From Prorocentrum cordatum (taxonomy: Eukaryota): a stretch of DNA of 64,000 nt. The stretch spans positions 248,001-312,000 of the forward strand of contig CAUYUJ010000026.1 of the NCBI GenBank assembly GCA_963575745.1, read 5' to 3'. Made by a program: the position numbers and the translations under genes. A model generated the notes under the pieces. That model was not told where the DNA came from and did no database searches. It saw nothing but the letters and a program-made list of their open reading frames with translations. Below, piece by piece: positions 1 to 19,989 of this stretch (its first letter is position 1; each line of letters begins with the position of its first letter).

Positions 1-3000
1 ACATCCGAGACCAGCTCGACGGCCACGAGCACCACTGAGTCGAGCAGCACGACGTTGACCAGCACAAGCGGCTCGAGCACCACTGAGTCGAGCACCATCA
101 CATTGACAAGCACCAGTGAGTCGAGCAGCACGACGTTGACCAGCACAACCGCGTCTAGCACCACCACGCTGACGAGCACTACAGACACAAGCAGCACGAC
201 GAGAAGCAGCACTACATCGATGACAAGCACCACCGAGACAAGTAGCACAACTGTCTCCAGCAGTACTTCGCTGTCCAGCACCAGCGAGACAAGCAGCGGG
301 ACGGAGACCAGTAGCACCACCCCGACCAGCACGACCCTGAGTAGCACCACAGTGTCCAGCACCACGTCAGCGACAAGCAGCACAACACTGACCAGCACCA
401 CGGAGTCGAGCACCTCGTCGTTGACCAGCACCACCGAGACAAGCAGCACGGCGACAAGCACCAGTGAGTCGAGCAGCACGACATTGACCAGCACAACCGG
501 CTCGAGCACGACAGGGTCGAGCACCATAACATTGACCAGCACCACGGAGACTAGCAAGACGGCGACGAGCACCACCGAGTCGAGTAGCACGACGTTGACA
601 AGCACAACTGCGTCTAGCACTACGGCGACAAGCACCAGTGAGTCGAGCAGCACGACATTGACCAGCACAACCGGCTCGAGCACGACAGGGTCGAGCACCA
701 TAACATTGACCAGCACCACGGAGACTAGCAAGACGGCGACGAGCACCACCGAGTCGAGTAGCACGACGTTGACAAGCACAACTGCGTCTAGCACTACCAC
801 GCTGACGAGCACTACAGACACAAGCAGCACGACGAGAAGCAGCACGACAAGCACTACCGGCACCAGTAGCACAACATTGAGCAGCACCTCGGCGTCAAGC
901 AGCACAACGCTGAGCAGCACCACGGTATCTAGCAGCACTGGATCAAGCACCATGTCGTTGACCAGCACCACCGAGACAAGCAGCACGGCGACAAGCACCA
1001 GTGGGTCGAGCAGCACGACGCTGACCAGCACAACTGGGTCCAGCACGACAGAGTCGAGCACCATAACATTGACCAGCACCACCGAGACCAGCAAGACGGC
1101 CACGAGCACCTCTGAGTCGAGCAGCACGACGTTGACCAGCACAACCGCGTCTAGCACTACCACGCTGACGAGTACTACAGACACTAGCAGCACGACGAGA
1201 AGTAGCACGACAAGTTCTACCGGCACCAGTAGCACAACATTGAGCAGCACCTCTGCGTCAAGCAGCACAACGTTGAGCAGCACCACGGTATCTAGCAGCA
1301 CTGGATCGAGCACCACGTCGTTGACCAGCTCCACCGAGACTAGCAGGACGGCGACAAGCACCAGCGATTCGAGCAGCACGACGCTCACCAGCACAACCCG
1401 CTCGAGCACGACAGTTTCAAGCAGCACGTCATTGACGAGCACCACCGAGACTAGCACGACGGCGACAAGCACCAGCGAGTCGAGCAGCACGACGTTGACA
1501 AGTACAACCGCGTCTAGCACCACCACGCTGACGAGCACTACAGACACAAGCAGCACGACGAGAAGCAGCACTACATCGATGACAAGCACCACCGAGACAA
1601 GTAGCACAACTGTCTCCAGCAGTACTTCGCTGTCCAGCACCAGCGAGACAAGCAGCGGGACGGAGACCAGTAGCACCACCCCGACCAGCACGACCCTCAG
1701 TAGCACCACAGAGTCCAGCACCACGTCAGCGACAAGCAGCACGACCCTGACCAGCACTACGGAGTCGAGCACCACGTCAGGGCATACCACTACCGAGACA
1801 AGCAGTACTGCGTCGAGCAGCACGACATTCAGCAGCATCACGGGATCGAGCAGCACCACGTTGACCAGCACCACCGATTCGAGTAGCACGACGTTGACCA
1901 GCACAACCGCGTCCAGCACTACCACGCTGACGAGCACTACAGACACAAGCAGCACGACGAGAAGTAGCACGAGAAGCACTACTGGTACCAGTAGCACAAC
2001 ATTGAGCAGCACCTCTGCGTCAAGCAGCACAACGTTGAGCAGCACCACGGTATCTAGCAGCACTGGATCAAGCATCACGTCGGCGACGAGTACTACAATG
2101 ACAAGCCGCACGTTGACCAGCACCAGTGAGTCGAGCAGCACGACATTGACCAGCACAACTGGCTCCAGCACGACAGGGTCGAGCACCATAACATTGACGA
2201 GCACCACCGAGACTAGCAAGACGGCGACGAGCACCACGGAGTCGAGTAGCACGACGATGACCAGTACATCAGCGTCGAGCATTACAGTGTCTAGCAGCAC
2301 ATCGTTGACGAGCACTACTGAGACCAGCCAGACGTCGACAAGCACCAGCGATTCGAGCAGCATGACGTTGTCCAGCTCCACAGAGTCAGACACCAGATCG
2401 TTGACGAGCACTACTGGGACGAGCAGCACGTCGTTAAGTAGCACCACGAGGACGAGCAGCGCATCGCTGACCAGCAGTACTGGAACGTCGAGCACGACCC
2501 TAAGCAGCACCACGGAGTCGAGCACCACGTCAGTGCATACCACTACCGAGACAAGCAGCAGTGCGACGAGCAGCACGACGTTCAGCAGCATCACGGGATC
2601 GAGCAGCACCACGTTGACCAGCACCACCGAGACAAGTAGGACGGCGACAAGCATCAGTGGGTCGAGCAGCGCGACATTGACCAGCACAACTGGCTCCAGC
2701 ACGACAGGGTCTAGCAGCACAACATTGACCAGCACTACCGAGACTAGCCAGACGTCGACAAGCAGCAGCGATTCGAGCAGCACGACGCTGTCCAGTACAA
2801 CCGCGTCTAGCACCATCTCGCTGACAAGCACTACAAAGACAAGCAGCACGACGAGAAGTACCACTACGACAATGACAAGCACTACTGAGACAAGTAGCAG
2901 AACGATGACCATCAGCAGCACACTGACTGGTACGACCAAGACCAGTACTACGTCAGCAACAAGCAGCACCACCCTTCTCAGCACCACCGACTCTAGCACA

Positions 3001-3665
3001 ACAGTTTCGAGCAGCACATCGTTGACCAGCACCACTGGCACAAGCATGACGGCGACAAGCACTAGCGAGTCGAGCAGCACGACGTTAACCAGCAAGACAG
3101 CGTCGAGCAGCACATCATTGACCAGCAGTACCGAGACAAGCAGCAATACGTTCACCAGCAGCACAAGCTTTACCAGCGCGTCGTTAACAAGTACCACGGG
3201 AACCAGCACCAGCTCCCTCACGAGCAGTCGCACTATGTCCAGCACGACACTCAGCAGCACGACGCAATCCAGCACCAGCACAAGTGAAACGAGCACAACG
3301 ACGCTGAGCACTTCCACCGACTCGAGCACGTCGTCGCTCACCAGTACCACCACCAGCTCCATCACCGCCACGCTGACAAGCAGCACTACCTTGACCAGCA
3401 CGACTGAGACAAGCAGGTCAGGTACCAGCACCGTCTCGTTCACCAGCCATACAGAGACAAGCAGCACGACTCTCAGCAGCACATCTGGCTCAAGTAGTGT
3501 GACCCAGACCTCTTCGACAACCCTCACGAGCAGCACCGACACTAGCACAAATTCGTGGACAAGCTCGACGAGCGTAAGCGGCACAATCACCACGACAAGC
3601 TTGAGCTCCACGTCAACATCTTCGCTGATCAGCGCAACCGCGACAAGCAGCACATCCCTTTCAAG
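1..3665 (+). CDS. Large exon of a giant Ser/Thr-rich repeat protein (mucin/adhesin-like); 5' incomplete
   Basis: Frame 1 is open from base 1. About 1220 codons of ~11-aa S/T units (e.g. SSTTLTSTTET) with varied synonymous codons, so not a simple DNA repeat. S/T coding stops abruptly at TCAAG|GCCTT, a candidate GC donor at 3666 (phase 2). Confidence 0.85.
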
Positions 3666-4302
3666 GCCTTATTTTCGATTTTGTTCGCTTGCTGTTGTCC
3701 CACATTCGAAGTGCGGTTGCGCTCCCAAGTGTCTCCGCACGGGGAGTCCATGACAATCTCCTCGTCACGCTTGCTTCGTCGAGGTTTGAAGGCCCCTCGG
3801 GTTCTGAGCGCGTTGCAGTGAGACTCTGCTCACTGTGAGGCCATTGGCCCGTCAGAGAAGCACAACCTGAGAAGAAGGGGAGCTGTCAAGGGAGAGAGGG
3901 TGAATGAGACTGGGAGCAAGCGCCCCTCCGGCCCGTCACGACTAGAGGTTGCTCGTGAGTGCAGGCCGGCGCCGTTGCAGAACTGGGGCAGACATCACGG
4001 CGGGGAGAACAGCTTGGACGGACTCTTACTTGCCCCCCTCTCCTGAGCCTTCCCCTTCTTCCTCTTGGCATCGCTCAGACGTGTGCATTCTTCCTCGGTG
4101 AGCACTATCGAGGATCATCCTGGATCATCTCGCGAATCATACAAGCAGGAAGCCGAAGCATGCACAGTGAGTTAACGTCCGAGCGACTGCAAGTCCTTTG
4201 ACGCTTACACAATAGACATGATATCTCTTCCCTGGCTGCGTCCTGGACGAGTCCCGCCCTCTTCTTGCATTTCACGCTTGTCTATTCGAGGCGCTTGGGT
4301 GT

Positions 4303-4590
4303 CTCAAAACGGCGCTCCCGCTACAGCATTGGAAGCGTTGGCCTCATTTTAGGATCGGTGCTTTGCTCCCGTCATTCCGAGTGGAGGTCTCGCTCAAGCG
4401 CGAGTCGCATTTGTGGATCCGAATTCATCCGCGTCATTTTCGCCCCCTCAAAACGGCGCTCCCGCTACAGCATTGGAAGCGTTGGCCTCATTTTAGGATC
4501 GGTGCTTTGCTCCCGTCATTCCGAGTGGAGGTCTCGCTCAAGCGCGAGTCGCATTTGTGGATCCGAATTCATCCGCGTCATTTTCGCCCC
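4303..4590. repeat. Perfect tandem duplication of a 144-bp unit
   Basis: 4303-4446 is repeated at 4447-4590 (ctcaaaacggcgct...ttttcgcccc). Confidence 0.9.
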
Positions 4591-6519: not shown

Positions 6520-7620
6520 TGCCATGGGGTCCGTGGGTGGAGCTCTTTCTGGATCACGAAGCGCTGGATACATGTGAACTGGTCAAGTGGGACCGTCGGT
6601 GGAGCTCCATTAAAAAGGCACGAAGCGCTGTACTGGGTGGTGGGGGCGCATGTGAACGATTCCACTGGGGCCTGCGGTGGAGCGACCTATGGGCCACGAA
6701 ACGCTGTACTGGGTGGGAGAAACGCATGTGGTCGTTGCTATTGGGGCCTTCGGTGGAGCTCCCTACGGGGCCACGAAGCGGTGTACAAGGTGGGTGAGAC
6801 GCATGTGGACGGTGTCATTGAGACTTCTAGTGGAGCTCGAAGCTCCCTATGGGGCCGCGAAGCGCTGTATTGGGTGGGGGAGGCGCATGTGAAAAAAGGG
6901 TCCACTGGGGCCTTCGCTGGCGCTCCTTATGGTGCCACGAAGCGCTGTATTGAGCGTGGGGGACGCATGCGAGGGCAACCATTGGGGACCCCCGTGGAGC
7001 TATGGGGCCACGAAGCGCTGCACTGGGTCGGGGCGACGCATGCGAGTGCAGCCATTGGGGCTTTCGGCTCAGCTTCCTATGGCGCCACGAAGCGCTGTAC
7101 TGGGAAGGGGGAGACGCGCACAAGTGCAACCACTGGGGACTTCGGTGGAGCTCCCTATGAGGCCGCGAAACGCTTTACTGGGCGGGGGGGTATGCCAGCG
7201 CAGCCACTGGGGCCTTCGTTCGAGCTCCCTATGGGGCCACGAGACTCTGTGCTGGGTGGGGGAGGCGCGCGCGAGTGCAGCCAGTGGGGCCTTCGGTCGA
7301 GCTCACTATGGGGCCACGAAGCGCTGCACTGGGTCGGGAAAGCGCCTGTGAATGCAGCCACTGGGGCTTTTGGTGTTCCCCATGGTGCCACGAAGCGCTG
7401 TATTGGGTGTGGGAGACGCGCGCGGGTGCATCCACTGGGGCCTTCGGTGGAGCTCTCCGTGAGGCCGCGAAACGCTGTGCTGGGCTTTGGGGGCGCATGC
7501 GAGTGCAGCCACTGGAGCCTTTGGCCGAGCTTCCTATAGGGCCACGAAACGCTGTACAAGGTGGGGGAGGCGCATGCAAGTGCAGCCGCCCGCTGGGGCC
7601 TTCGGTGGAGCTTCCTGTGG
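6520..7620. repeat. ~80-bp tandem satellite (ggccacgaagcgctgtactgggtggggg...cactggggccttcggtggagctccctatgg), about 13-14 diverged copies
   Basis: The unit recurs visibly; the ORFs here (GATKRC/GHEAL repeats) are artefacts. Confidence 0.9.
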
Positions 7621-9928: not shown

Positions 9929-10896
9929 GCCTTGCGCTCGGCCGCAGCAGGAGGAACAGGTAGCAGCAGCAGCAGCCGTCCTGTGACAGTAATGCTGGTG
10001 TAAGCCAGACCATTTCGTGTCGTGGAAAAAATCTCAAGACGGATATGTGTGTATGTGTGTATGGGTGTGTTCAGCTATTTTCGGCCTTTGGGGGCCTTCG
10101 CCGGGCCCCAGGACCGTCAAGCTAGTCCCAGGAAATGGGTTAAGACCTCTTGAGGTCGACGTTGTTAGACAACCACACAGTCGTGGGAGGAAACTTGCGT
10201 ACGCGCAGGTTTTCGTTGAACAGGGCGTTCTCGAGATGCAGGGCTCGGGGAGCAGTGGGCTTGGGTGCAGTTGGCCTCAGGGGGGAGGGGGGGGGAGCGA
10301 TGCGTCGCCATGGAGCATATGGGCTCTGAACACTCATATAATAGGAGATCTAGGCCTAAGGTTTCTTCGCCGCCACGAGCCCTGGGACGGTCAAGAAACA
10401 GTCCTGTCTGGAGGCCGAACGCGACCAAAAATCTCGCATTGCATGTTTTACGTCAAGGTGGTGTTTTTTTCGGTCATGCCTCTGGCAGCCGTTCGGGATC
10501 ACTCGGGCCCCTCCCGCGAACGCTCCCGGCTCTTCGTGGTTGTTGGGTTGTTGAAAAGTCCCAGAGGTTGGCACGCCTCCAGTAGCCGACGCACATTGCA
10601 GAGGCGACGATATGGGCGAATAGCCCAGGGAGAGCAATACGTGTATCCAGGGGCGCCGTGCATTGCCCGCCCCTGGGTTATTCGCCCTTGTTGTCGCCGC
10701 CGAACATCGTGATCTTCCTCTCGGAGCCGTGGCGTTCTTCCTCGGCGCCAGGAGGCCTCCTGTGGCAGCGTCAGGGGGGGGGGCAGGCTCAGGGGTGGAC
10801 GCGTCGGCCCCACATCGCCCACTGGTCGCCGGTAGGGGCCCTGGTAGCCCAACACGCTCAGGATGGAGGGCTTTCCCGAAGGGCTCAGGCGACCCG

Positions 10897-10937
10897 TCCT
10901 CCTCCTCCTCCTCCTCCTCCTCCTCCTCCTCCTCCTC
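10897..10937 (+). repeat. (TCC)13TC tract: 5' target site of the LINE
   Basis: Abuts the SL. Its last 29 nt equal 17511-17539. Confidence 0.9.
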
Positions 10938-10989
10938 TCCGTAGCCATTTTGGCTCAAGCCATTTTGGCTCAAGCCGTTCTGGCCCAGG
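10938..10989 (+). other. Dinoflagellate spliced leader (22 nt) plus two relict 15-nt SL copies
   Basis: TCCGTAGCCATTTTGGCTCAAG (10938-10959) matches DCCGTAGCCATTTTGGCTCAAG. CCATTTTGGCTCAAG (10960-10974) is perfect. CCGTTCTGGCCCAGG (10975-10989) matches 11/15. Confidence 0.97.
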
Positions 10990-11084
10990 TGATTTGGGCT
11001 TGCTAGCGTATACTTCAGAACGGCACACTGCGCTAGCGGGTCAAGTGGCTCGTTCAGACTGTAGCATCGTTCGCGGCGTCTCCC

Positions 11085-12149
11085 ATGGGACCAAAGCAGC
11101 ATGAGATCATCGGTGCGAAATGTCTCTCGTGTGGTGCTGCGAAGTGCAACAAACCGTGGTACAAATGGTGTGCGAATTGTTGGGCCCCCATTCCGCACGT
11201 TTCCCCTGGCGCTCCTCGCGATCCTGGGGGTGTGTGGCAAAGTGGCCCAGCAGTTCCAGGCCCAAAAGGTTCTCACAAAGGTCAAGGACCCAAAGGTGGT
11301 GGACGTGGCAAAGGCGGGTTTGGGAGTGGCGGAGGCGGCGGCGTCGGGGGAGGACCTTGTGGTCGTGGAGGCGCTTTGGCTCATCCTGCGGACCCGTCGT
11401 CCCTCCTCGCCCAGCTTCAGCTGCTCATGGGTCAGCTCAAGGACGATTTCCCAGAGCGTGCAGCAGTGGCCAGCTCCATCGCGGCGTCGGCTTCAGCCAT
11501 CCGTTCCCAGCAGTCTGAAGCTCGTCCCCTTCGGCAGCAGGCATCTGAGGCTCAGCAGGCTCTTGACAAGAATGTTCGCGCCCTCAACTCGCTCGACTCC
11601 CAGATCGCAGACACCGAGTCGCGCATGGCGGAGCTCAAGGAGAAGAGGGCGGAGACCGCAACCCAGCAGGTACAGCTCAAGGCCAGGTACCTGGAGCTGG
11701 CGGCCAAGGTGGCCGACCTCCCGCCCCCGCCGCAGGCGGAGCTCCAGGGGCATTTGTCCAATTTCGACAGCGTGCTGGAGTCTGGCGACCTGGCCGCAAT
11801 TCGTGAGGGCTGGGCCAAACTCAAGACCAGCTGCCAATCCGTTGCCCAGAAGGAAGCCGCAGGCAGTGGAGCTGCTCCTGCTGCTTCTGACAGTGGTGGG
11901 GGGACGGGTGGTGAGGCGGGGGTGGAGACGGGTGTACCCACTCACTCTGATGAAGCAATGCCTCAGGTCGAGGCTGCGGACTCAGAAGCTTTCCAGAAAT
12001 TTTTACATGAATGGCAGCAGGCACAGTCGGAGGAAGTCTCGAGTGAGTCGAGGCAGCGCGTCTCGACTTTCATCGAGGCAGCGGCCAAGCGTGCCAAGAC
12101 GACGGCCGCCACTCCTACCGAGGCTCCTGCTCCTCGGACTCCTTCCTAG
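11085..12149 (+). CDS. LINE ORF1 (354 aa): RanBP2-like C4 zinc finger, G/K-rich linker, coiled coil
   Basis: First ATG after the SL. CLSC-x5-N-x6-CANC; KGxGxKG repeats; heptad-like A/Q/E/L segment. Confidence 0.85.
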   Translation: MGPKQHEIIGAKCLSCGAAKCNKPWYKWCANCWAPIPHVSPGAPRDPGGVWQSGPAVPGPKGSHKGQGPKGGGRGKGGFGSGGGGGVGGGPCGRGGALAHPADPSSLLAQLQLLMGQLKDDFPERAAVASSIAASASAIRSQQSEARPLRQQASEAQQALDKNVRALNSLDSQIADTESRMAELKEKRAETATQQVQLKARYLELAAKVADLPPPPQAELQGHLSNFDSVLESGDLAAIREGWAKLKTSCQSVAQKEAAGSGAAPAASDSGGGTGGEAGVETGVPTHSDEAMPQVEAADSEAFQKFLHEWQQAQSEEVSSESRQRVSTFIEAAAKRAKTTAATPTEAPAPRTPS

Positions 12150-13085
12150 CCCACCTCAGCCGGTGTCGGCTGGCTCGTCTCCCCTCCTTAGTCAGGATGT
12201 GGCCGCGGGAGTGCTTGTAGAAGGCTCTCTCCAGCCCCCTCCTCCGCCTGATTTGGATAATTTCGGGCTCTGTGTGCAGACTTGCAATGTTTCAGGATGG
12301 CAGTCACTCAAGAATAAGTGGCTGCCAATGACCACGGCACACGTTTTGTTAGTCCAAGAACATCACTTATGCTCAGATGAAGACATCTCCAAGGCGTCCG
12401 AATGGCTCTTTCGTCATGGGTGGAAGTCGTGTTGGGCGGCGGCCGCATGTGGGGAGGGCACTGGGTCTTCAGGAGGTGTTGCAGTTTTGGCTAGATCGTA
12501 TCTCGGGCTTCACACGTTGTCGTCGGGCTTCGTACTGTCCCCTCATCGTGCTGGAGCTTGTGTTATAGATATTCCAGGAGGATTTCAGGTCCTTGTCGGA
12601 TCGATCTACCTCCACGACGTCGAAGGTCTTTCTGAGCGCAACGTGGAGATCTTGTCGCGTCTCGGAGCTGGACTTTCACATTCTGATCTCCCTGTCGTTG
12701 CGGGAGGTGATTTCAACATGACTCCAGGTGAGTTTCAGAAGTCGCCTTTCGTTTCGGAGTTCAAAGGCCAGATGATCACCCCAACAGACGGAGGCTACAC
12801 GCTCCGCAGCACGGGGGGCCTCAAAGTATCTGATTTCTTTGTCGTCTCGGCAGGCATCGCGAAGGTTATCAGGCAGGTGAGTGTCAACTACAATTCCCCT
12901 CTCACCCCCCACTCCCCTGTGGATCTGGAGCTTTTCCCTTCGCCTGCTCAACTCAACGTTTTGGTTTTTCGGAAACCTCCCCCCCTTCCCCCCCAAAGGG
13001 CCATAGGGCCCACTCGGGAACCCCCATCTTGGGACCCTGTTCTCGACGTGCTGGAGGCGGCTCTGGTAGCTGCCAGGGCGGGGAG
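12150..13085 (+). CDS. LINE ORF2 part 1: apurinic-like (EEP) endonuclease; start codon uncertain
   Basis: TCNVSG (about 12280), LLVQEHH, SGGVAVL, SIYL, GGDFN (12703-12717), SDFFVVS, HSPV. Confidence 0.85.
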
Positions 13086-15305
13086 GGGGCGGAAACTCAA
13101 AGGCTGCTCAATCTCACCTACAAGTGGTGGGCCAACCTTGCGGAAGTGGAGGTGGCCAACGCCACTCAATCGGTGCTTCCGGTTTGGGGTGCGAGAGGCA
13201 AGGGTCCTCAGCTTATGAGGAAGCCTGTTTTCTCGAAGGACAAGGAACCTCTTAGGCACCCCTTTCTGTACTCCGTCAGGTGGCTGTATAATCGCATCTT
13301 GGACTGCAAGGTGTACGTTTCGTCTAATTCCCAAAAGGCCAAGAGTGGTGGAGTTGATTTTGCGAGGGCCCTGAGGTCCTACATTTTTCACCCTCCCCCT
13401 TTCGTGGTCGTGAATCTGGGTGCCCATAAGGAGCTGCTTATCACCTTGCAGTCCATGATCACCCGTGCTGATTTGGACTCGAGCGGAGAGCTCGAGCAGG
13501 ACGTTCTCGATCTGTCTCTCTCGTTCTCCGACGTGGTCGCGCAGGCAGAAGCCAGCGCTAGGGACCGCAGTTTAGCTTCCTGGCGTAGTTGGCTGAGAGA
13601 GAACATCGATCAGGGGGCCAAGCGAGCTCACATGGTCACTTCTGAACCCAAGCCCTGGAAACCTACTTCCACTCTCTCGTCCAACGGCTGTGTGGTCAGT
13701 GACCCCAGGTCCCTTCTCGAGGCTGAACGCAACAAGTTAATTCATTTATGGCGCGCTTTTGACTCCCCGCGGGAGTTGGGACCTATTGCCGATTTCTTTC
13801 CTGCTCCTGAGCTCCCCCCTTTGGACCCCAACGAGTTGGTCCGCATTTCGAGGAGCTACAAGATGTATTCGGCGGTGGGCGTGGACGGTTTCCACATGAA
13901 ACATTTCAGTATGATTTCCCTTCCTGGGGTCACGGCGCTGTGTAGGATCCTGCAGGTCATGGAAATCTCCAGCATGTTGCCATTCCAGCTTGATGCCACA
14001 GTGTTGGCGCTCCTGGGTAAACCTACTGGAGGGTTCCGCCCTATCGGGATTTTCATGGGTCCTTACCGCATCTGGGGGAAAGCGCGGCGGTGCCTTGCCG
14101 AGAGCTGGGAGGGGTCGCACGCTCGTCCCTACTTTGCGGCGGGCAAGTACCAGGGGGCCTCAGACGTTGTATGGCGGCAAAGCGTCCGCAGCGAGAGTGG
14201 GGCAACCCACTCCTTACATGCGGCTACCCTCCTGCAGGACATGTTTAAATACTACGAGCTCATTGATCTCGAGCGACTCCTCGGTCGTTGTATAAGGCTG
14301 GGTTTCCCTATTGCCATGGCCAAGTTGGCTGTGCGGGCCTACAGGGCCCCGAGGTTTCTTTCCTTGGGTGGCTGCATCGACGGTCCGTGGTACGCTTCTT
14401 CTGGAATCATAGCGGGGTGTTCGTTGGCCACGACCCTGATCAGGGTTAACGCGGTGGAGTCGCTCGATACTGTTAGGTTACGGCAGGGTGCTCAACTGGC
14501 GCTCTACATCGACGATTCTGGCCTCAGTGCTGTCGGCTGTTTCAATTTTGTTGTGGACGCCATCACGGAAGGCGCGCCCCAGCTCCACGCTGCCATCGTT
14601 GATGGCATTGGTGCGCAGGTGGCGGCTGACAAATCCAGCCTGATTTGTTCCTCGGCCAAGCTTGGCAGGGCCATTCAGGCCAAACTGGGAGTTGAGCTCA
14701 CGGGTCCCATTACTTCCAGTGCTGTTAACCTTGGGATGGACGACACGGTGGGGAAGAGTTCTCGGACCCAGGGTCGTAACAAAAAGCTTGTGATTAGGAG
14801 ACGTCTTTTCATCAAACGCACTGGCCGAGTGGCTAAACTTCGTAAGACCCTTGGTTCCAGGAGAACTTTGCGAGTTTTCACTGCAGGACCGCTCCCTGGC
14901 TTACTGTATGGCAGCGAGGTTAGAGGGGTTACTGACTACGAGCTGATGCTCATCCGCCGTGCGGCGGCCAGGACGATAAAGCCTTCAGCTGGCCAACGCT
15001 CCCTGACGGTGCTTTCCCACCTCGAAGGCGACCCTGCTTGGGTTGGGGCCGTTTCCCCGATCTTGCGGTGGCACAAGGAAGTTTGGTGCTCTCAGGTCAG
15101 GGCCTTTGAAGGCTCGATTCCTTTCAGGGAGCTGAGGCAAGCGTGGGAAGGTGTTTTTCTTCAGGATTCCCCCTCGTGGAGGGCGGTAGGTGGTCCTGTG
15201 GCAGCCATGCGCAAGTCCTTGGAGAGGATCTCGTGGACGATGAGGGACTTCGCCACTTTCGTCACTGACAAGGGGATCGAGCTTTCCATGACCCTCATGT
15301 CCCCC
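13086..15305 (+). CDS. LINE ORF2 part 2: reverse transcriptase (after a frameshift in the G-run at about 13080-13089)
   Basis: AVGVDG, LLGKPTGGFRPIG, QDMFKYYE, GIIAGCSLA, catalytic YIDD (14505-14516), ADKS. Confidence 0.9.
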
Positions 15306-17139
15306 CAGTGTCAAGCACCATCTCCGCGGGGCAGTCTTCAGGGTTCTCGAGTGGGAAGCTGGTGCTAAATGGGATGTGCCTCATCGTCTGTGCTTTGACG
15401 TGGTGAAGTTCGAGCTCCGCCGCAAAAAATACTCAGCTCTCGAGAAAGGGTGTATTCGGGCTGTTGCTACGGACGCAGTGTGGACTCGTGCTAAAGCATT
15501 GCGATTGGGTTACCAGATAGACCCCACGTGCCACCTCTGCGGCTCAGCCCCCGACACGCTCCACCACCGACTTTGGGTCTGCAGGTGCCAGGAGGTTGTC
15601 GAGCTCCGTTCCAGTCTTGTTACTCCCGAGCTTGTTTGCAAGGCCCTGGAGGAGCCCAATTCGATTCGGTCTTGTTTTGGAGCTTTTGCCCACCCTGGGG
15701 ATTATTTTCCTGGTCCCGCGGCCGAGTCGTCTGGTACTTTCTGGGCCAGGGAGGACCTTCCCCAGGATGTAGGCCAATTTCCTTTCACAAACAATATTTT
15801 CACAGACGGTAGCGCATGTAAGCATATAGTTCGCGAGCTCAGCAGGGCAGGCTGGTGTTTTGTGGCTGTGGACGACCAGGGGGACCTCTTGGGAAAGCTC
15901 TACGGTCCCGTCCCCCCGTGCTACCCCCAGACTGCCCCTGCGGGCGAGTTTGCTGCTATTTGTCAAGCCATACTTTTCTCAGGAGGACCTTCGGATTTTT
16001 ATACAGATGCTCAGCTGGTCAAAGATCACTTCGGTCGCCCTCAGATTGACCAGCTTTCACCTAAGCGATGCTACAGCGGGTTCTCCCTCTCCCTCCTTTC
16101 AGATTTCTGGAAGGTCCGCTCTTTGAACAAAGTGAAAGCGCATCGCTCTTTGGAAGAGTGGACCGACAATCATGACAAGATGTGCCGTTTTGGGAACCAC
16201 CACGCTGATGTTGGAGCTAAAAGTGCTTCTGCGGGGGAAGGGTACCTGGGGCACCCACAGCCGTCGGAGGAGGACAGGTGCAGGCTTGATCTCGACATTA
16301 AGTTTTCTCGGGCTGTGGCATCACTGTCTGCTAAGCTGATGCCTTTGTGGCCCAAATTAGACCTCCAAGACGTTGTGTGGATTCAGCCGCCTAAAGACCC
16401 CCCCCAGGTGGTTTCCTCTGTGCTTTGCGATTGGCAGCCCATCCAGATTGTCGAGCTTGGTTCCGTCTCGGGCTTTTGGAAGTGTTCGAGGTGTGCAAAA
16501 GTCAGCCGTCTTTCCACCCATGGTCCCCCGCCTCCTTCCTCGAAGTGCTCCCCTGTTCGAGGGATGGAGGCGCAGGTTTTGGAGGCGCGGGGACACAGGT
16601 GTTTGACGCTGGCCTGCTCAGACAATTCGACTTTGGTGATCTGCACCAAGTGCTATTCTTATTCGTCTCATGGTCGTGCGTCGGGCCTTGCGGAAGTTTG
16701 CAGCGGCCCGACCAGATCAAAGAAATACAACAGTTGGCACCCGATTTGTAAAGGCCTCCATCCTAAGCGTCCAGGAGTCTCGGTTGAGAGAGGGCCGTGG
16801 GCGCAGAAGGGAGGAGGCCTTCAGGTAGCCGATGCAGGTGCCGCCGCGGCGCAGGAGCACGGCTCTCCGCGCCCCGCCACCGCCGCCGAGGACCGAGGGG
16901 ACGGGGTGGAGCGGGGAGCGGGGGGGGGAGCGACTGTGTCCGAGCACGCTGGTTTGCAGGACTGGGAGGCGGACGAAGAAGCCTCTCGTTTTCTTTTTCA
17001 GGGCCCTCCCTCTCCTCCTCCTCCTCCCCCCCTTCTTGGTTTGCCCTGTGCCCCGGCCTCTTCTCGCTGTGAGGCCAGGGAGGCGTCGTTTATTTCGGTG
17101 CTCGCGCACCGTGATGAGGGCGACTCTAGTTCGGACTAA
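15306..17139 (+). CDS. LINE ORF2 part 3: CCHC zinc finger, RNase H, Cys/His-rich C-terminus (after a frameshift at C6, 15301-15306)
   Basis: CHLCG...HHRLWVC; FTDGS, GEFAA, YTDAQ, KVKAH, GNHHADVGAK (D-E-D-D set intact); CSRC and CTKC clusters. Confidence 0.9.
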
Positions 17140-17510
17140 CGCCTGGGGGAGAAGCAGCGGGCCACGGGGTATCCTCCAGCCAGCTGGAGATGACCCTGTG
17201 GCCCGCTGCTTTTCCTCGCTTTTCAGGTGTTAGTATTTGCTGGCTTGTCCAGCCGTCCTGCCCTAATTGTCCGCGCGGCGCAGGCTTGGGCATTGCACCC
17301 TCAGGGTCAGCCCTCGCCCCCGCGTCTTTCGCCTGGCTCTGCCGCTCCTGCTTTCTCCGCGCAGATCTGGGCAGCTGGCCCGACAGCGCGGCGGGAAATG
17401 CTATCTTCTCCCCGTGATGAGGGCGACTCTAGTTGCTGGCTTGACCAGCCGTCCTGCCCTAATTGTCTGGGCTGGCTCTCTACCTTGATGTTGATGTCAA
17501 AAAAAAAAAA

Positions 17511-17539
17511 TCCTCCTCCTCCTCCTCCTCCTCCTCCTC
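17511..17539 (+). repeat. (TCC)9TC: 3' target-site duplication
   Basis: Directly follows the poly(A) and ends in the same TC register as the 5' tract. Confidence 0.85.
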
Positions 17540-17724
17540 GGGTCGCCTACGGCCCCGGGGGAAGTCGTGCAGCTCAGGGCCATGCGCATTCGCCACCAGG
17601 CGCCCATCGACGATCCATCGGCGATGCCCTGCCGATGTCAGTGCGACGTGTCCCCCCCGCCTGAGCCAGACCCCCGACGCGAAGCCTGTCCAGAACGCGG
17701 GCCCCCAGAGGTCTCGACCCATAC

Positions 17725-18472
17725 TTAAGTCGGGCGTCTCCCCCTACAGGAGGGACATTCAAACATTGTCAACAAATAATATGGGGACGATCTTTTTCCC
17801 TACCTAGGCTCTGCCTAGAAGGGTTCTTACTCTCTTAGCTTATAGGGGCCGGGCATTGCATGCCCGGGCGTTGCAACATCCCCTGACGGTTCCCCCCAGT
17901 CCCCTGAGAGCTTTAGCTTTAGCTTTAGCTTTAGCTTTACTTAGCTTTAGCTTAGCTTTAGCTTAGCTGTAGCTTAGCTTTAGCTTAGCGTTTCGCTTAG
18001 CGTTTCGCTTAGCTTTTCGCTTAGCGTTTAGCTTAGCTTTAGCTTAGCTTTAGCTTAGCTTGAGCTTAGCTTGAGCTTAGCTGTAGCTTAGCTTTAGCTT
18101 AGCTTTAGCTTAGCTTTAGCTTAGCTTTAGCTTAGCTGTAGCTTAGCTTTAGCTTAGCTGTTGCTCAGCTTTAGCTTAGCTTTAGCTTAGCTTTAGCTTA
18201 GCTTTAGCTTAGCTTTATCTTAGCTTTAGCTTAGCTTTATCTTAGCTTTAGCTTAGCTTTAGCTTAGCTGTGGCTTAGCTTTAGCTTAGCTTTAGCTTAT
18301 CTTTAGCTTAGCGTTACTGTTACTACTAATGCTGCTTTCCTAGGGGTTCCAACTCCTAGGTAGGGTCGCACTGGGATAATCTAGTAATTTTGAAGATTGT
18401 GGGAGTATTTGTTGGGAGTATTTTGAATTCTTTCGCACAAAATCCCCCTGTAGGTGGCCAGGCCCGGCCTAA
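17725..18472. mobile_element. MITE-like element with ~30-bp imperfect TIRs, containing a nested 11-bp-IR unit (17798-18365)
   Basis: Left ttaagtcgggcgtctccccctacaggaggga versus reverse complement of right ttaggccgggcctggccacctacaggggga. Inner perfect IR CCCTACCTAGG/CCTAGGTAGGG. The same TIR family occurs at 56154 and 63732. Confidence 0.6.
17909..18312. repeat. Satellite of TTTAGC/TTAGC units (mostly the 11-bp TTTAGCTTAGC)
   Basis: Direct reading, about 400 bp. Confidence 0.95.
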
Positions 18473-19989
18473 ACCCATACCCTGGGGCCGTCCTGAGTTT
18501 TTCGGACGGTCCCGGGGCCTGGCGAAAAACGCCCCGAGAGGTGGAAAATAACAGAAATGACGTCCGTCGTGCGTTTTCCACGGCGCGAGGGTCGATACCT
18601 CCCCCCCCTCCTGAGCCATACCCCTCCCCCCTGCTTTCCCCCTCGGCCCCTGGGGTTGTCGGGCCCGGACGATAGGGTAGGACAGCAAAATCTGCTGCAT
18701 GCACTTGGTTTCCGCCCCGCCGCCGGGCCCATTCCTCCGGTGCAGGAGCGCCTCTCGGCGCCAGGAAGCTTCTCTGCCCTACCCTTGGCTATCCTACCCT
18801 TTTGCCACCCCCGAGGTTGGCATGCAGCCCTCCTCCAGCCGCGCGCTCGGGTGGCGCCCCCCCCTCATCGGCGCAGGAGCGCCGTCGTGGGCGATGCCTT
18901 GGGGGCGGCCCCGCGGGAATCCTTCGGGCGGGGTCCTTGGGGCCCCAGGGTGCCGTGGGCACCGGCGATCTGTTCGTAGGTGCGCACTGCGCCCCGAGAG
19001 CCCCTCGCGCGATGAAAAAACCGCGACGGGATGCTTTTGGTATGTTTGGCTTCTGGGAGAGGGTCCCCACTGTGCCTCGGCACTGCAAAGAAGGCACAGC
19101 ATGAGAAACCGGTCCCGGGGAAGGGCTCCAGACCCCTGGGGGTCGACGTGATGAACAAATCATGACGTGGGGGGGGCTTTGAGCCACCAGGTGCAGGAAC
19201 GCTTCACCCCAACTGCACCGACGAAGCTCGTGCACTTCGCCATGGATATGTAAGGCGTGATGAAGGTTGCGGCTGGCAGGGGGTCGCCTTGGTTAGGGCG
19301 AACTTCGGGGGGCTCCCGAGGGCCCCGACCCGGCGGCTCCCGAGGCCCGCCCCCCCCCCGAGGCCCCCGAGAGGGGTCACACGACATGCTCGCCAATGCG
19401 GGTGTGTGACTGCCGCGGGCTGGCAGCGCTATAGAATGGACGCGGCCATGAGCAGCACTGCTACCATCGGGAACGCGTGCGGTTCGCCTTCGCCAGAACT
19501 CGGGCTCGCCGACGCTTCTTTTGACGGCCCGTCCTGAATTTTGGCGGTCCAGCTCTCGTGAGATGCTTGCAGAGGGAACTCGCGTCAAATTTCAGACGGG
19601 GGTTCGTCATTTTCTTGACTGCCCCGTCATGCCAACTCGGGTCGCCCGAATCCGAGTCTTACATTGAACGGTTTGAATAAGGAAAGGAACACTTATTTTT
19701 CAAAAGGGGCTCGGTCGTTCCTTAGGCTTGCATGCGTTATTGATCGTTCTTGATGCGTTTGGTATCGTCCCTTATGCGTTGTTCCTTGGGATAAAAGGGG
19801 CTTCGTTCCGTATTCATCGTTCTGTAGGTCAGGCCGATGATTGTACGTCTCCCCGATCTAAGATCTAGGGGCACATCTTTCGTCGCCTCTGCGCTTCGTG
19901 AGGTGCCCCCGGGCCCCAGGGGCTCTGCGGACCCTTGGGGAGATGAGAGCCTCTCCTGGGGCAGCCGCTGGCGGGCCGATGCTGATGCT

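Follow-up and report, generated by a model that had tools for sequence, protein, structure and literature searches.

SLACS, CZAR and CRE are trypanosomatid LINEs that are specific for spliced leader (SL) genes. The NeSL elements of nematodes are LINEs that target spliced leader exons (PMC4640811). L1Tc and ingi have been described with an internal promoter (Pr77) and with unspliced transcripts (PMC1874656, PMC8190864). Non-LTR elements that target microsatellites are also known, for example the (TG)n-specific Togen (PMC4640811, citing Kojima & Fujiwara 2004).

In dinoflagellates, retrogenes attributed to 'mRNA recycling' (Slamovits & Keeling 2008, as cited) carry a genomic leader followed by leader remnants, of which up to four have been described (PMC3229502, PMC5585692, PMC7245778, PMC12014239). 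The machinery that makes these copies is called unknown in a review that favours LTR copia elements (PMC6050394), and LINEs have been suggested for the role elsewhere (PMC5585692; PMC10235124). 'RNA-dependent DNA replication' is enriched among leader-tagged genes (PMC5585692). In the parts of the full-text literature available to us, we found no autonomous LINE with a leader array as its 5' end. Relic leaders have previously been described for retrogenes and ESTs, and an earlier description of a leader-capped LINE may exist.

The 64-kb stretch of DNA analysed here (the window) contains an inserted unit of 6,573 bp (10938-17510) whose first bases are a complete spliced leader. Judged by its predicted proteins and its ends, the unit is an autonomous-type LINE with ORF1, an APE-type endonuclease, a reverse transcriptase (RT), RNase H, an A12 tail and a target-site duplication (TSD). 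We consider it likely that this is a young LINE copy made from a trans-spliced and polyadenylated RNA by target-primed copying into (TCC)n, and that its leader array stands for at least three such cycles. The features are as follows.

10888..10895, no strand assigned: outer flank GGCGACCC, an exact 8-bp inverted repeat of GGGTCGCC at 17540-17547
10897..10937, + strand: 5' copy of the target-site duplication, (TCC)13TC, matching the 3' copy and ending in TCCTC
10938..10959, + strand: complete 22-nt spliced leader, the element's first bases, identical to the consensus and unique in the 64-kb window
10960..10974, + strand: relic unit 1, CCATTTTGGCTCAAG, leader nt 8-22, 15/15 matches
10975..10989, + strand: relic unit 2, CCGTTCTGGCCCAGG, 11/15 matches, in register, also present in contigs of public runs X1, X2 and X4
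10990..11004, + strand: possible relic unit 3, TGATTTGGGCTTGCT, in register, 8/15 matches (P = 0.017), suggestive only
11065..13218, + strand: ORF2 piece A, with a predicted APE-type endonuclease at ~12337-12768 (PF03372, E = 2.1e-7)
11085..12149, + strand: ORF1, 354 aa, with an N-terminal Cys-rich zinc-finger-like motif, a Gly-rich stretch and a coiled-coil-like region
12834..15368, + strand: ORF2 piece B, predicted reverse transcriptase with YIDD, RT core at ~14019-14525
13084..13085, + strand: frame break 1, within a G run; run contigs have one more G
15292..17139, + strand: ORF2 piece C, with a zf-RVT-like motif at ~15460-15591, an RNase H-like domain at ~15793-16227 and a Cys-rich C-terminal part
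15308..15309, + strand: frame break 2; run contigs have two more letters
17140..17498, + strand: structured 3' UTR (fold z = -5.69; 0 of 100 shuffles fold as well)
17499..17510, + strand: A12 tail, the sole A run of at least 9 in the window
17511..17539, + strand: 3' copy of the target-site duplication, (TCC)9TC, ending in TCCTC and followed by GGGTCGCC

The leader at 10938-10959, TCCGTAGCCATTTTGGCTCAAG, is a perfect 22-nt DinoSL and equals the published consensus DCCGTAGCCATTTTGGCTCAAG with D = T. An earlier, sequence-only reading of this DNA had reported a full DinoSL followed by a perfect 15-nt remnant and then by an 11/15 remnant, and all three can be read directly in the sequence. The junctions are those of splicing, in that only the leader exon is present and the remnants start right after the AG at leader nt 6-7. 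The array consists of a full leader (22/22) and remnants at 15/15, 11/15 and, possibly, 8/15, and the next in-register unit after 11004 matches at 5/15 only. For relic unit 2, the probability of at least 11/15 matches is P = 1.2e-4, and such 15-mers occur across the window at a frequency of 1.25e-4. The exact leader 15-mer does not occur in the 64-kb window beyond its two copies in the array. When up to three mismatches are allowed there are five matches (chance expectation 2.06), namely the two exact ones, both in the array, and three others with three mismatches each. The four changes in relic unit 2 (A>G, T>C, T>C, A>G) are transitions throughout.

The duplicated target places the array inside the inserted unit. 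The 5' copy of the TSD ends in TCCTC immediately before the TCCGTAG of the leader, so leader and element begin at the same base, give or take 1-2 nt; with that margin, the claim of the sequence-only reading to this effect holds, both TSD copies ending in TCCTC. Since the leader array lies within the duplicated target, it was part of the RNA that was reverse transcribed. The inverted-repeat flanks enclose the microsatellite, as would be expected if a single empty site had been built as stem-(TCC)n-stem. Target choice through microhomology with the TCC of the leader was also considered; for the window copy it was rejected, because the TC of the duplication and the TCC of the leader are each complete there. 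The other end is also that of a LINE, with the A12 tail, the (TCC)n duplication on both sides and no LTRs; a self-comparison of the window returned no terminal direct repeats.

The coding capacity was assessed by profile and structure searches. The Cys-rich motif of ORF1 is invariant in a sister family (described below), and a profile search with ORF1 returned five relatives, three of which are NCBI-named Prorocentrum cordatum proteins at 55-79% identity. Together with the G+C content of the window, these relatives suggest a Prorocentrum-like host. The endonuclease matches PF03372 (Exo_endo_phos) at 31.4 bits, above the 24.5-bit cut-off, and lies N-terminal to the RT, as expected of an APE-type enzyme. 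The RT of the window copy reaches only E = 0.25 for RVT_1, below the Pfam cut-off, and is identified by its YIDD motif, by RVT_1 in 9 of 10 relatives and by a profile match to LINE-1 ORF2p. That profile, built from 12 family members, has human LINE-1 ORF2p as its best solved structure (E = 1.2e-8); phmmer with the single RT frame against the PDB gave nothing meaningful. An exhaustive search of 1.84 billion representatives with the RT frame found 4205 relatives at E <= 1e-3, 393 of them at E <= 1e-30, and supersedes a word-indexed protein search with the same frame that yielded one match among 8000 scored candidates. Among the 10 top relatives that were scanned, Pfam reports RVT_1 in nine, RNase_H in five, Exo_endo_phos in three and zf-RVT in one, with no family in one. 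In piece C, zf-RVT scores below its cut-off (E = 0.0011), and the piece aligns with the Pfam RNase_H stretch of one relative, P0007 (E = 4e-47 overall).

In the +1 frame of ORF1, which is that of ORF2, no stop interrupts the reading from 11065 through the end of ORF1 (11065-12149). An ATG in this frame lies 16 nt past the ORF1 start in the window (11101) and 13 nt past it in L001, a sister-family contig (241). In 20,000 trials of synonymous-codon shuffling, zero +1 stops were obtained in 0.27% for the window and in 10% for L001. The stop-free overlap with ORF1 may reflect dual coding or a very long N-terminus of ORF2.

Several further features were observed in and around the structured 3' UTR. 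A near-perfect long hairpin (~17144-17218) lies right behind the ORF2 stop, and there are internal duplications (17109-17131 equals 17412-17434; 17234-17271 resembles 17430-17467). Contigs from the public runs carry alternative sequence between 17288 and 17325. An Rfam scan of 10000-18500 gave 11 matches at E <= 1, none of them near the gathering score.

The G+C content of the window is 52-67%, and the part outside the element is rich in repeats. Positions 1-3750 are taken up by degenerate tandem repeats whose periods are 33, 63, 111 and 363 nt; the AT skew of this long array is strong (0.5), Pfam has no match in it, and each strand has an open frame exceeding 1200 codons. A perfect direct duplication of 144 nt lies at 4303-4590, and a 77-nt (also 151/228-nt) satellite occupies 6619-7616 in ~10 copies. 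A further tandem repeat with an 11-nt unit, AGCTTTAGCTT, starts ~370 nt beyond the element's 3' end and fills 17909-18316 (36.6 copies, 91% matches). Pfam assigned no family at E <= 1e-4 to any of 50 long open frames that lie beyond the element. Open frames of this length are numerous in the window and seem to stem from its high G+C content and its repeats, not from genes.

The 64-kb window contains no second copy of the element. However, 7 of 24 listed public runs, from four studies, contain at least half of the element's sampled words. Four of these runs, one per study (X1, X2, X4 and X7), were compared with the window; all four consist of contigs, which give no copy number. The element is covered by contigs in all four runs at ~99.5% identity, with differences of 0.36-0.75%. 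Two X1 contigs differ from the window at 25 positions in 4336 nt and at 7 in 1947 nt, and two X2 contigs at 14 in 1870 nt and at 18 in 4154 nt. The covering contigs of all four runs carry one additional G after 13084. Two additional letters after 15308 are likewise found in all four; they account for the full depth in X2 and X7 and for roughly half of it in X4 and X1. When both length variants are applied to the window, one open frame of 2025 codons (11065-17139) results. The variants sit exactly at the window's two frame breaks. The family is thus intact elsewhere and young, and it is probably active. The window copy itself is either slightly damaged or dead, or it carries assembly indels. 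The X7 contig has an extra T after 15153 that is absent from the other three runs and makes a frame break of its own. Hardly any depth is seen in the runs over the flanking stretches 10700-10933 and 17486-17700, which were treated as uninformative.

The contigs also bear on the length of the array in these copies. The X4 contig ends exactly at 10958, at the AG common to GTAG/CC and CAAG/CC, where a de Bruijn branch point would be expected if copies with differing unit numbers coexist. The X2 contig has eight unlike letters before 10958, as expected of a copy that lacks one unit. In X1, a contig of 4363 nt has CCTCCTCCTCCTCCT directly before 10973, that is, before the AG and the 11/15 unit; it could represent a copy that was truncated at its 5' end and sits in a different (TCC)n tract, or one whose sole leader has decayed where it stands. 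In X7, the longest contig begins only at 10993 and so misses relic unit 2. Read as contig ends rather than as base-by-base sequence, these observations hint that array length differs among young copies.

When metagenome contigs were searched with ORF1, 253 pattern matches were obtained, two of which (L001 and L002) encode relatives with 43-46% identity. In both, an imperfect (TCC)n tract is followed by CCAG, a perfect 22-nt leader, a decayed full-length leader, a 145-nt 5' UTR and ORF1. The decayed leader has 21 nt, TCCGTAGCGTTTCGGCTGAGG, with 17 matches and one gap (L001 62-82). ORF1 is intact (353 aa), and the endonuclease frame begins after it. Over 1025 nt, L001 and L002 share 99.1% identity, and both may stem from a single locus; the sister family would then provide one insertion rather than two. 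The DNA of the window and of L001 barely aligns outside the leader and the zinc-finger codons. The head that they have in common is thus not inherited sequence but something that one process has produced more than once. The 11/15 unit of the window was also compared with a third stretch of L001; the alignment is no more than suggestive of homology, and no claim is made. The CCAG between (TCC)n and leader (L001 36-39, L002 164-167) has no counterpart in the window; it may belong to the target or may have been gained during integration. Three of the four substitutions in the decayed leader of L001 are of the same two types (A>G, T>C) as those in relic unit 2 of the window, at too few sites in either relic to separate ordinary decay from RNA-stage changes. 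Searches of the viral_contigs and genome_contigs collections with ORF1 and RT returned no relative.

These observations can be joined in one cycle. The LINE transcript would be processed like a host mRNA, with the 22-nt leader added by trans-splicing and with poly(A) added at the other end. The full-length RNA would then be copied at a nick in (TCC)n by target-primed reverse transcription (TPRT), and the new copy would keep the leader as its first bases, together with the A12 tail and the duplicated (TCC)n. A transcript of this new copy could be trans-spliced again at the AG of leader nt 6-7, leaving a 15-nt remnant behind the new leader. Repetition would build an array of 22 + 15 + a decayed 15, perhaps + 15. 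We infer both the addition of the leader to the element's own transcript by trans-splicing and the AG that is used. Three leader-derived units imply at least three cycles of trans-splicing and integration in the lineage, or four if the 8/15 unit is real. The proposal that the autonomous element itself passed through at least three rounds is well supported by the identity of the element as a LINE, by the position of the array inside the TSD and by the head of the sister family.

It is unlikely that the leader is real and the array grew by local tandem duplication, through 15-nt replication slippage between AGCC repeats, which would make the unit count uninformative on generations. The AG/CC that brackets each unit offers 4 nt of microhomology, so that one 15-nt unit could arise in this way, and microsatellites and tandem arrays are plentiful in the window. 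Slippage would, however, copy its neighbour, decayed units included, whereas the gradient from a perfect 5' unit to a decayed 3' unit (15/15, 11/15, 8/15) fits addition at the 5' end; the same decay gradient has been published for retrogenes (PMC3229502). The full 21-nt second unit of the sister family, moreover, contains TCCGTAG, which 15-nt slippage cannot yield.

LINEs are known to switch templates at their 5' ends, as LINE-1 does with U6 in mammals. The RT could have jumped from the LINE RNA onto SL RNA or another leader-bearing mRNA, so that the LINE RNA itself need not be trans-spliced, and leader-bearing RNAs would be abundant partners, given that leader-containing contigs are far deeper than the element (bin 10934-11167). 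We regard such a 5' chimera as very unlikely. A switch onto SL RNA would also copy the intron part, and only the 22-nt exon is present; a switch onto another mRNA would bring a foreign 5' UTR, but in the window and in the run contigs the array adjoins the family's own. In the sister family, the array likewise adjoins a UTR of that family, and the same chimera in each round is unlikely.

A mis-join in the assembly at the microsatellites or cDNA contamination could in principle have made the junction of leader and element, since both junctions lie at (TCC)n tracts, which are prone to mis-joins, and the unique flanks are almost without depth in the runs; this is highly improbable, and the chimeric join that had been named as a possible refutation is contradicted, given the exact 8-bp inverted repeat around one microsatellite, which speaks against an assembly join, the independent sister-family metagenome contigs with the same order of (TCC)n, leader, relic and ORF1, and an X1 contig of the window's own family with (CCT)5 directly before its 5' end.

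Repeated trans-splicing and target-primed integration of the LINE's own RNA remains the preferred explanation, and it sets limits on what the array can record. The sequence-only reading had taken the array for a generation counter whose decay gradient orders the rounds. The ordering stands, as the order of the units is the order of their addition. The number of units as a count of generations does not, and it gives way to a lower bound: the 11/15 unit is found in X1, X2 and X4 and is ~27% decayed, whereas whole copies are less than 1% apart, so unit 2 is much older than the present burst. The lineage either went through many cycles in which the array did not grow on balance, or it sat in one long-lived master whose leader decayed. 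Since every unit ends in AG, splicing between 10959 and 10960 would keep the array as it is, and splicing between 10974 and 10975 would shorten it. Trans-splice acceptor choice is described as flexible, with no consensus beyond AG (PMC2488372), and removal of relic leaders by splicing has been proposed (PMC3229502). The number of units is thus a minimum, and it can stand still or fall as cycles proceed.

Insertions can be read in the window copy, in L001/L002 and in one X1 contig with (CCT)5 directly before its 5' end. All of them (n = 2-4) lie directly behind (TCC)n and in the same orientation. Tracts of (TCC)n with at least five units on either strand make up 219 nt of the ~57.4 kb in the rest of the window, or 0.4%; with so small a share, chance placement is unlikely, though on 2-4 insertions. 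In the literature consulted, as far as its text was available, we found no dinoflagellate LINE of the APE type described as favouring (TCC)n. This apparent preference and the sister family are new relative to the first reading of this DNA.

A bolder reading of the target is that (TCC)n serves as a putative polypyrimidine tract and the first AG behind it as a putative acceptor, which would give read-through transcripts a capped, translatable 5' end. By aiming at (TCC)n, the element would place each new copy right behind a long tract of this kind. In the window, the first AG lies inside the old leader (GTAG/CC), and its use would fit remnants of 15 nt. The sister family has an AG immediately ahead of the leader (CCAG/TCCGTAG), and its use would fit the full-length remnant. 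As a counterpoint to an acceptor defined by a polypyrimidine tract, acceptor sites have been described as being without a consensus feature (PMC2488372). We advance only tentatively, and with some doubt, the wider suggestion of a LINE lineage that has no promoter of its own, lives off host trans-splicing by way of the AG adjacent to (TCC)n, and would supply the machinery behind the leader-tagged retrogenes.

Relic leaders are the standard tag of retrogenes in dinoflagellates, and published views differ on the source of the enzymes. A LINE that combines a leader array with poly(A) and a TSD ties trans-splicing of LINE RNA directly to TPRT. With leader-capped full-length RNA as the template for TPRT, the family becomes a specific candidate for the retrogene-making machinery. 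The element further suggests a way for a LINE to dispense with an internal promoter in a trans-splicing host. The states of the array offer an additional, imperfect character for ordering recent copies.

Like dinoflagellate retrogenes as they are described in the sources cited, the element has a full 22-nt leader, remnants cut after the AG of nt 6-7 and identity that falls in the 3' direction. Unlike retrogenes, which those sources present as host genes copied in trans, the carrier here is a retrotransposon with its own endonuclease and RT. It also has a poly(A) tail and a clear TSD, hallmarks that we did not find reported for retrogenes in the parts of those sources available to us.

Like microsatellite-targeting LINEs, the element is inserted in a simple repeat that is duplicated on both sides, but it is of the APE type, whereas the named microsatellite LINEs, as far as the source describes them, have restriction-like endonucleases. 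With the APE-type L1Tc and ingi of trypanosomatids it shares the combination of such a LINE with a trans-splicing host. These elements are described with an internal promoter and unspliced RNA, and the element analysed here, which carries the leader as its 5' end, represents the opposite solution. As in NeSL, SLACS, CZAR and CRE, the life cycle of a LINE is tied to the leader system of the host. The (TCC)n target, the leader inside the duplicated target and the APE-type endonuclease set it apart from LINEs specific for SL genes. NeSL and CRE are inserted in SL RNA genes and use a restriction-like endonuclease, whereas this element has an APE-type enzyme, enters (TCC)n and would acquire its leader at the RNA level.
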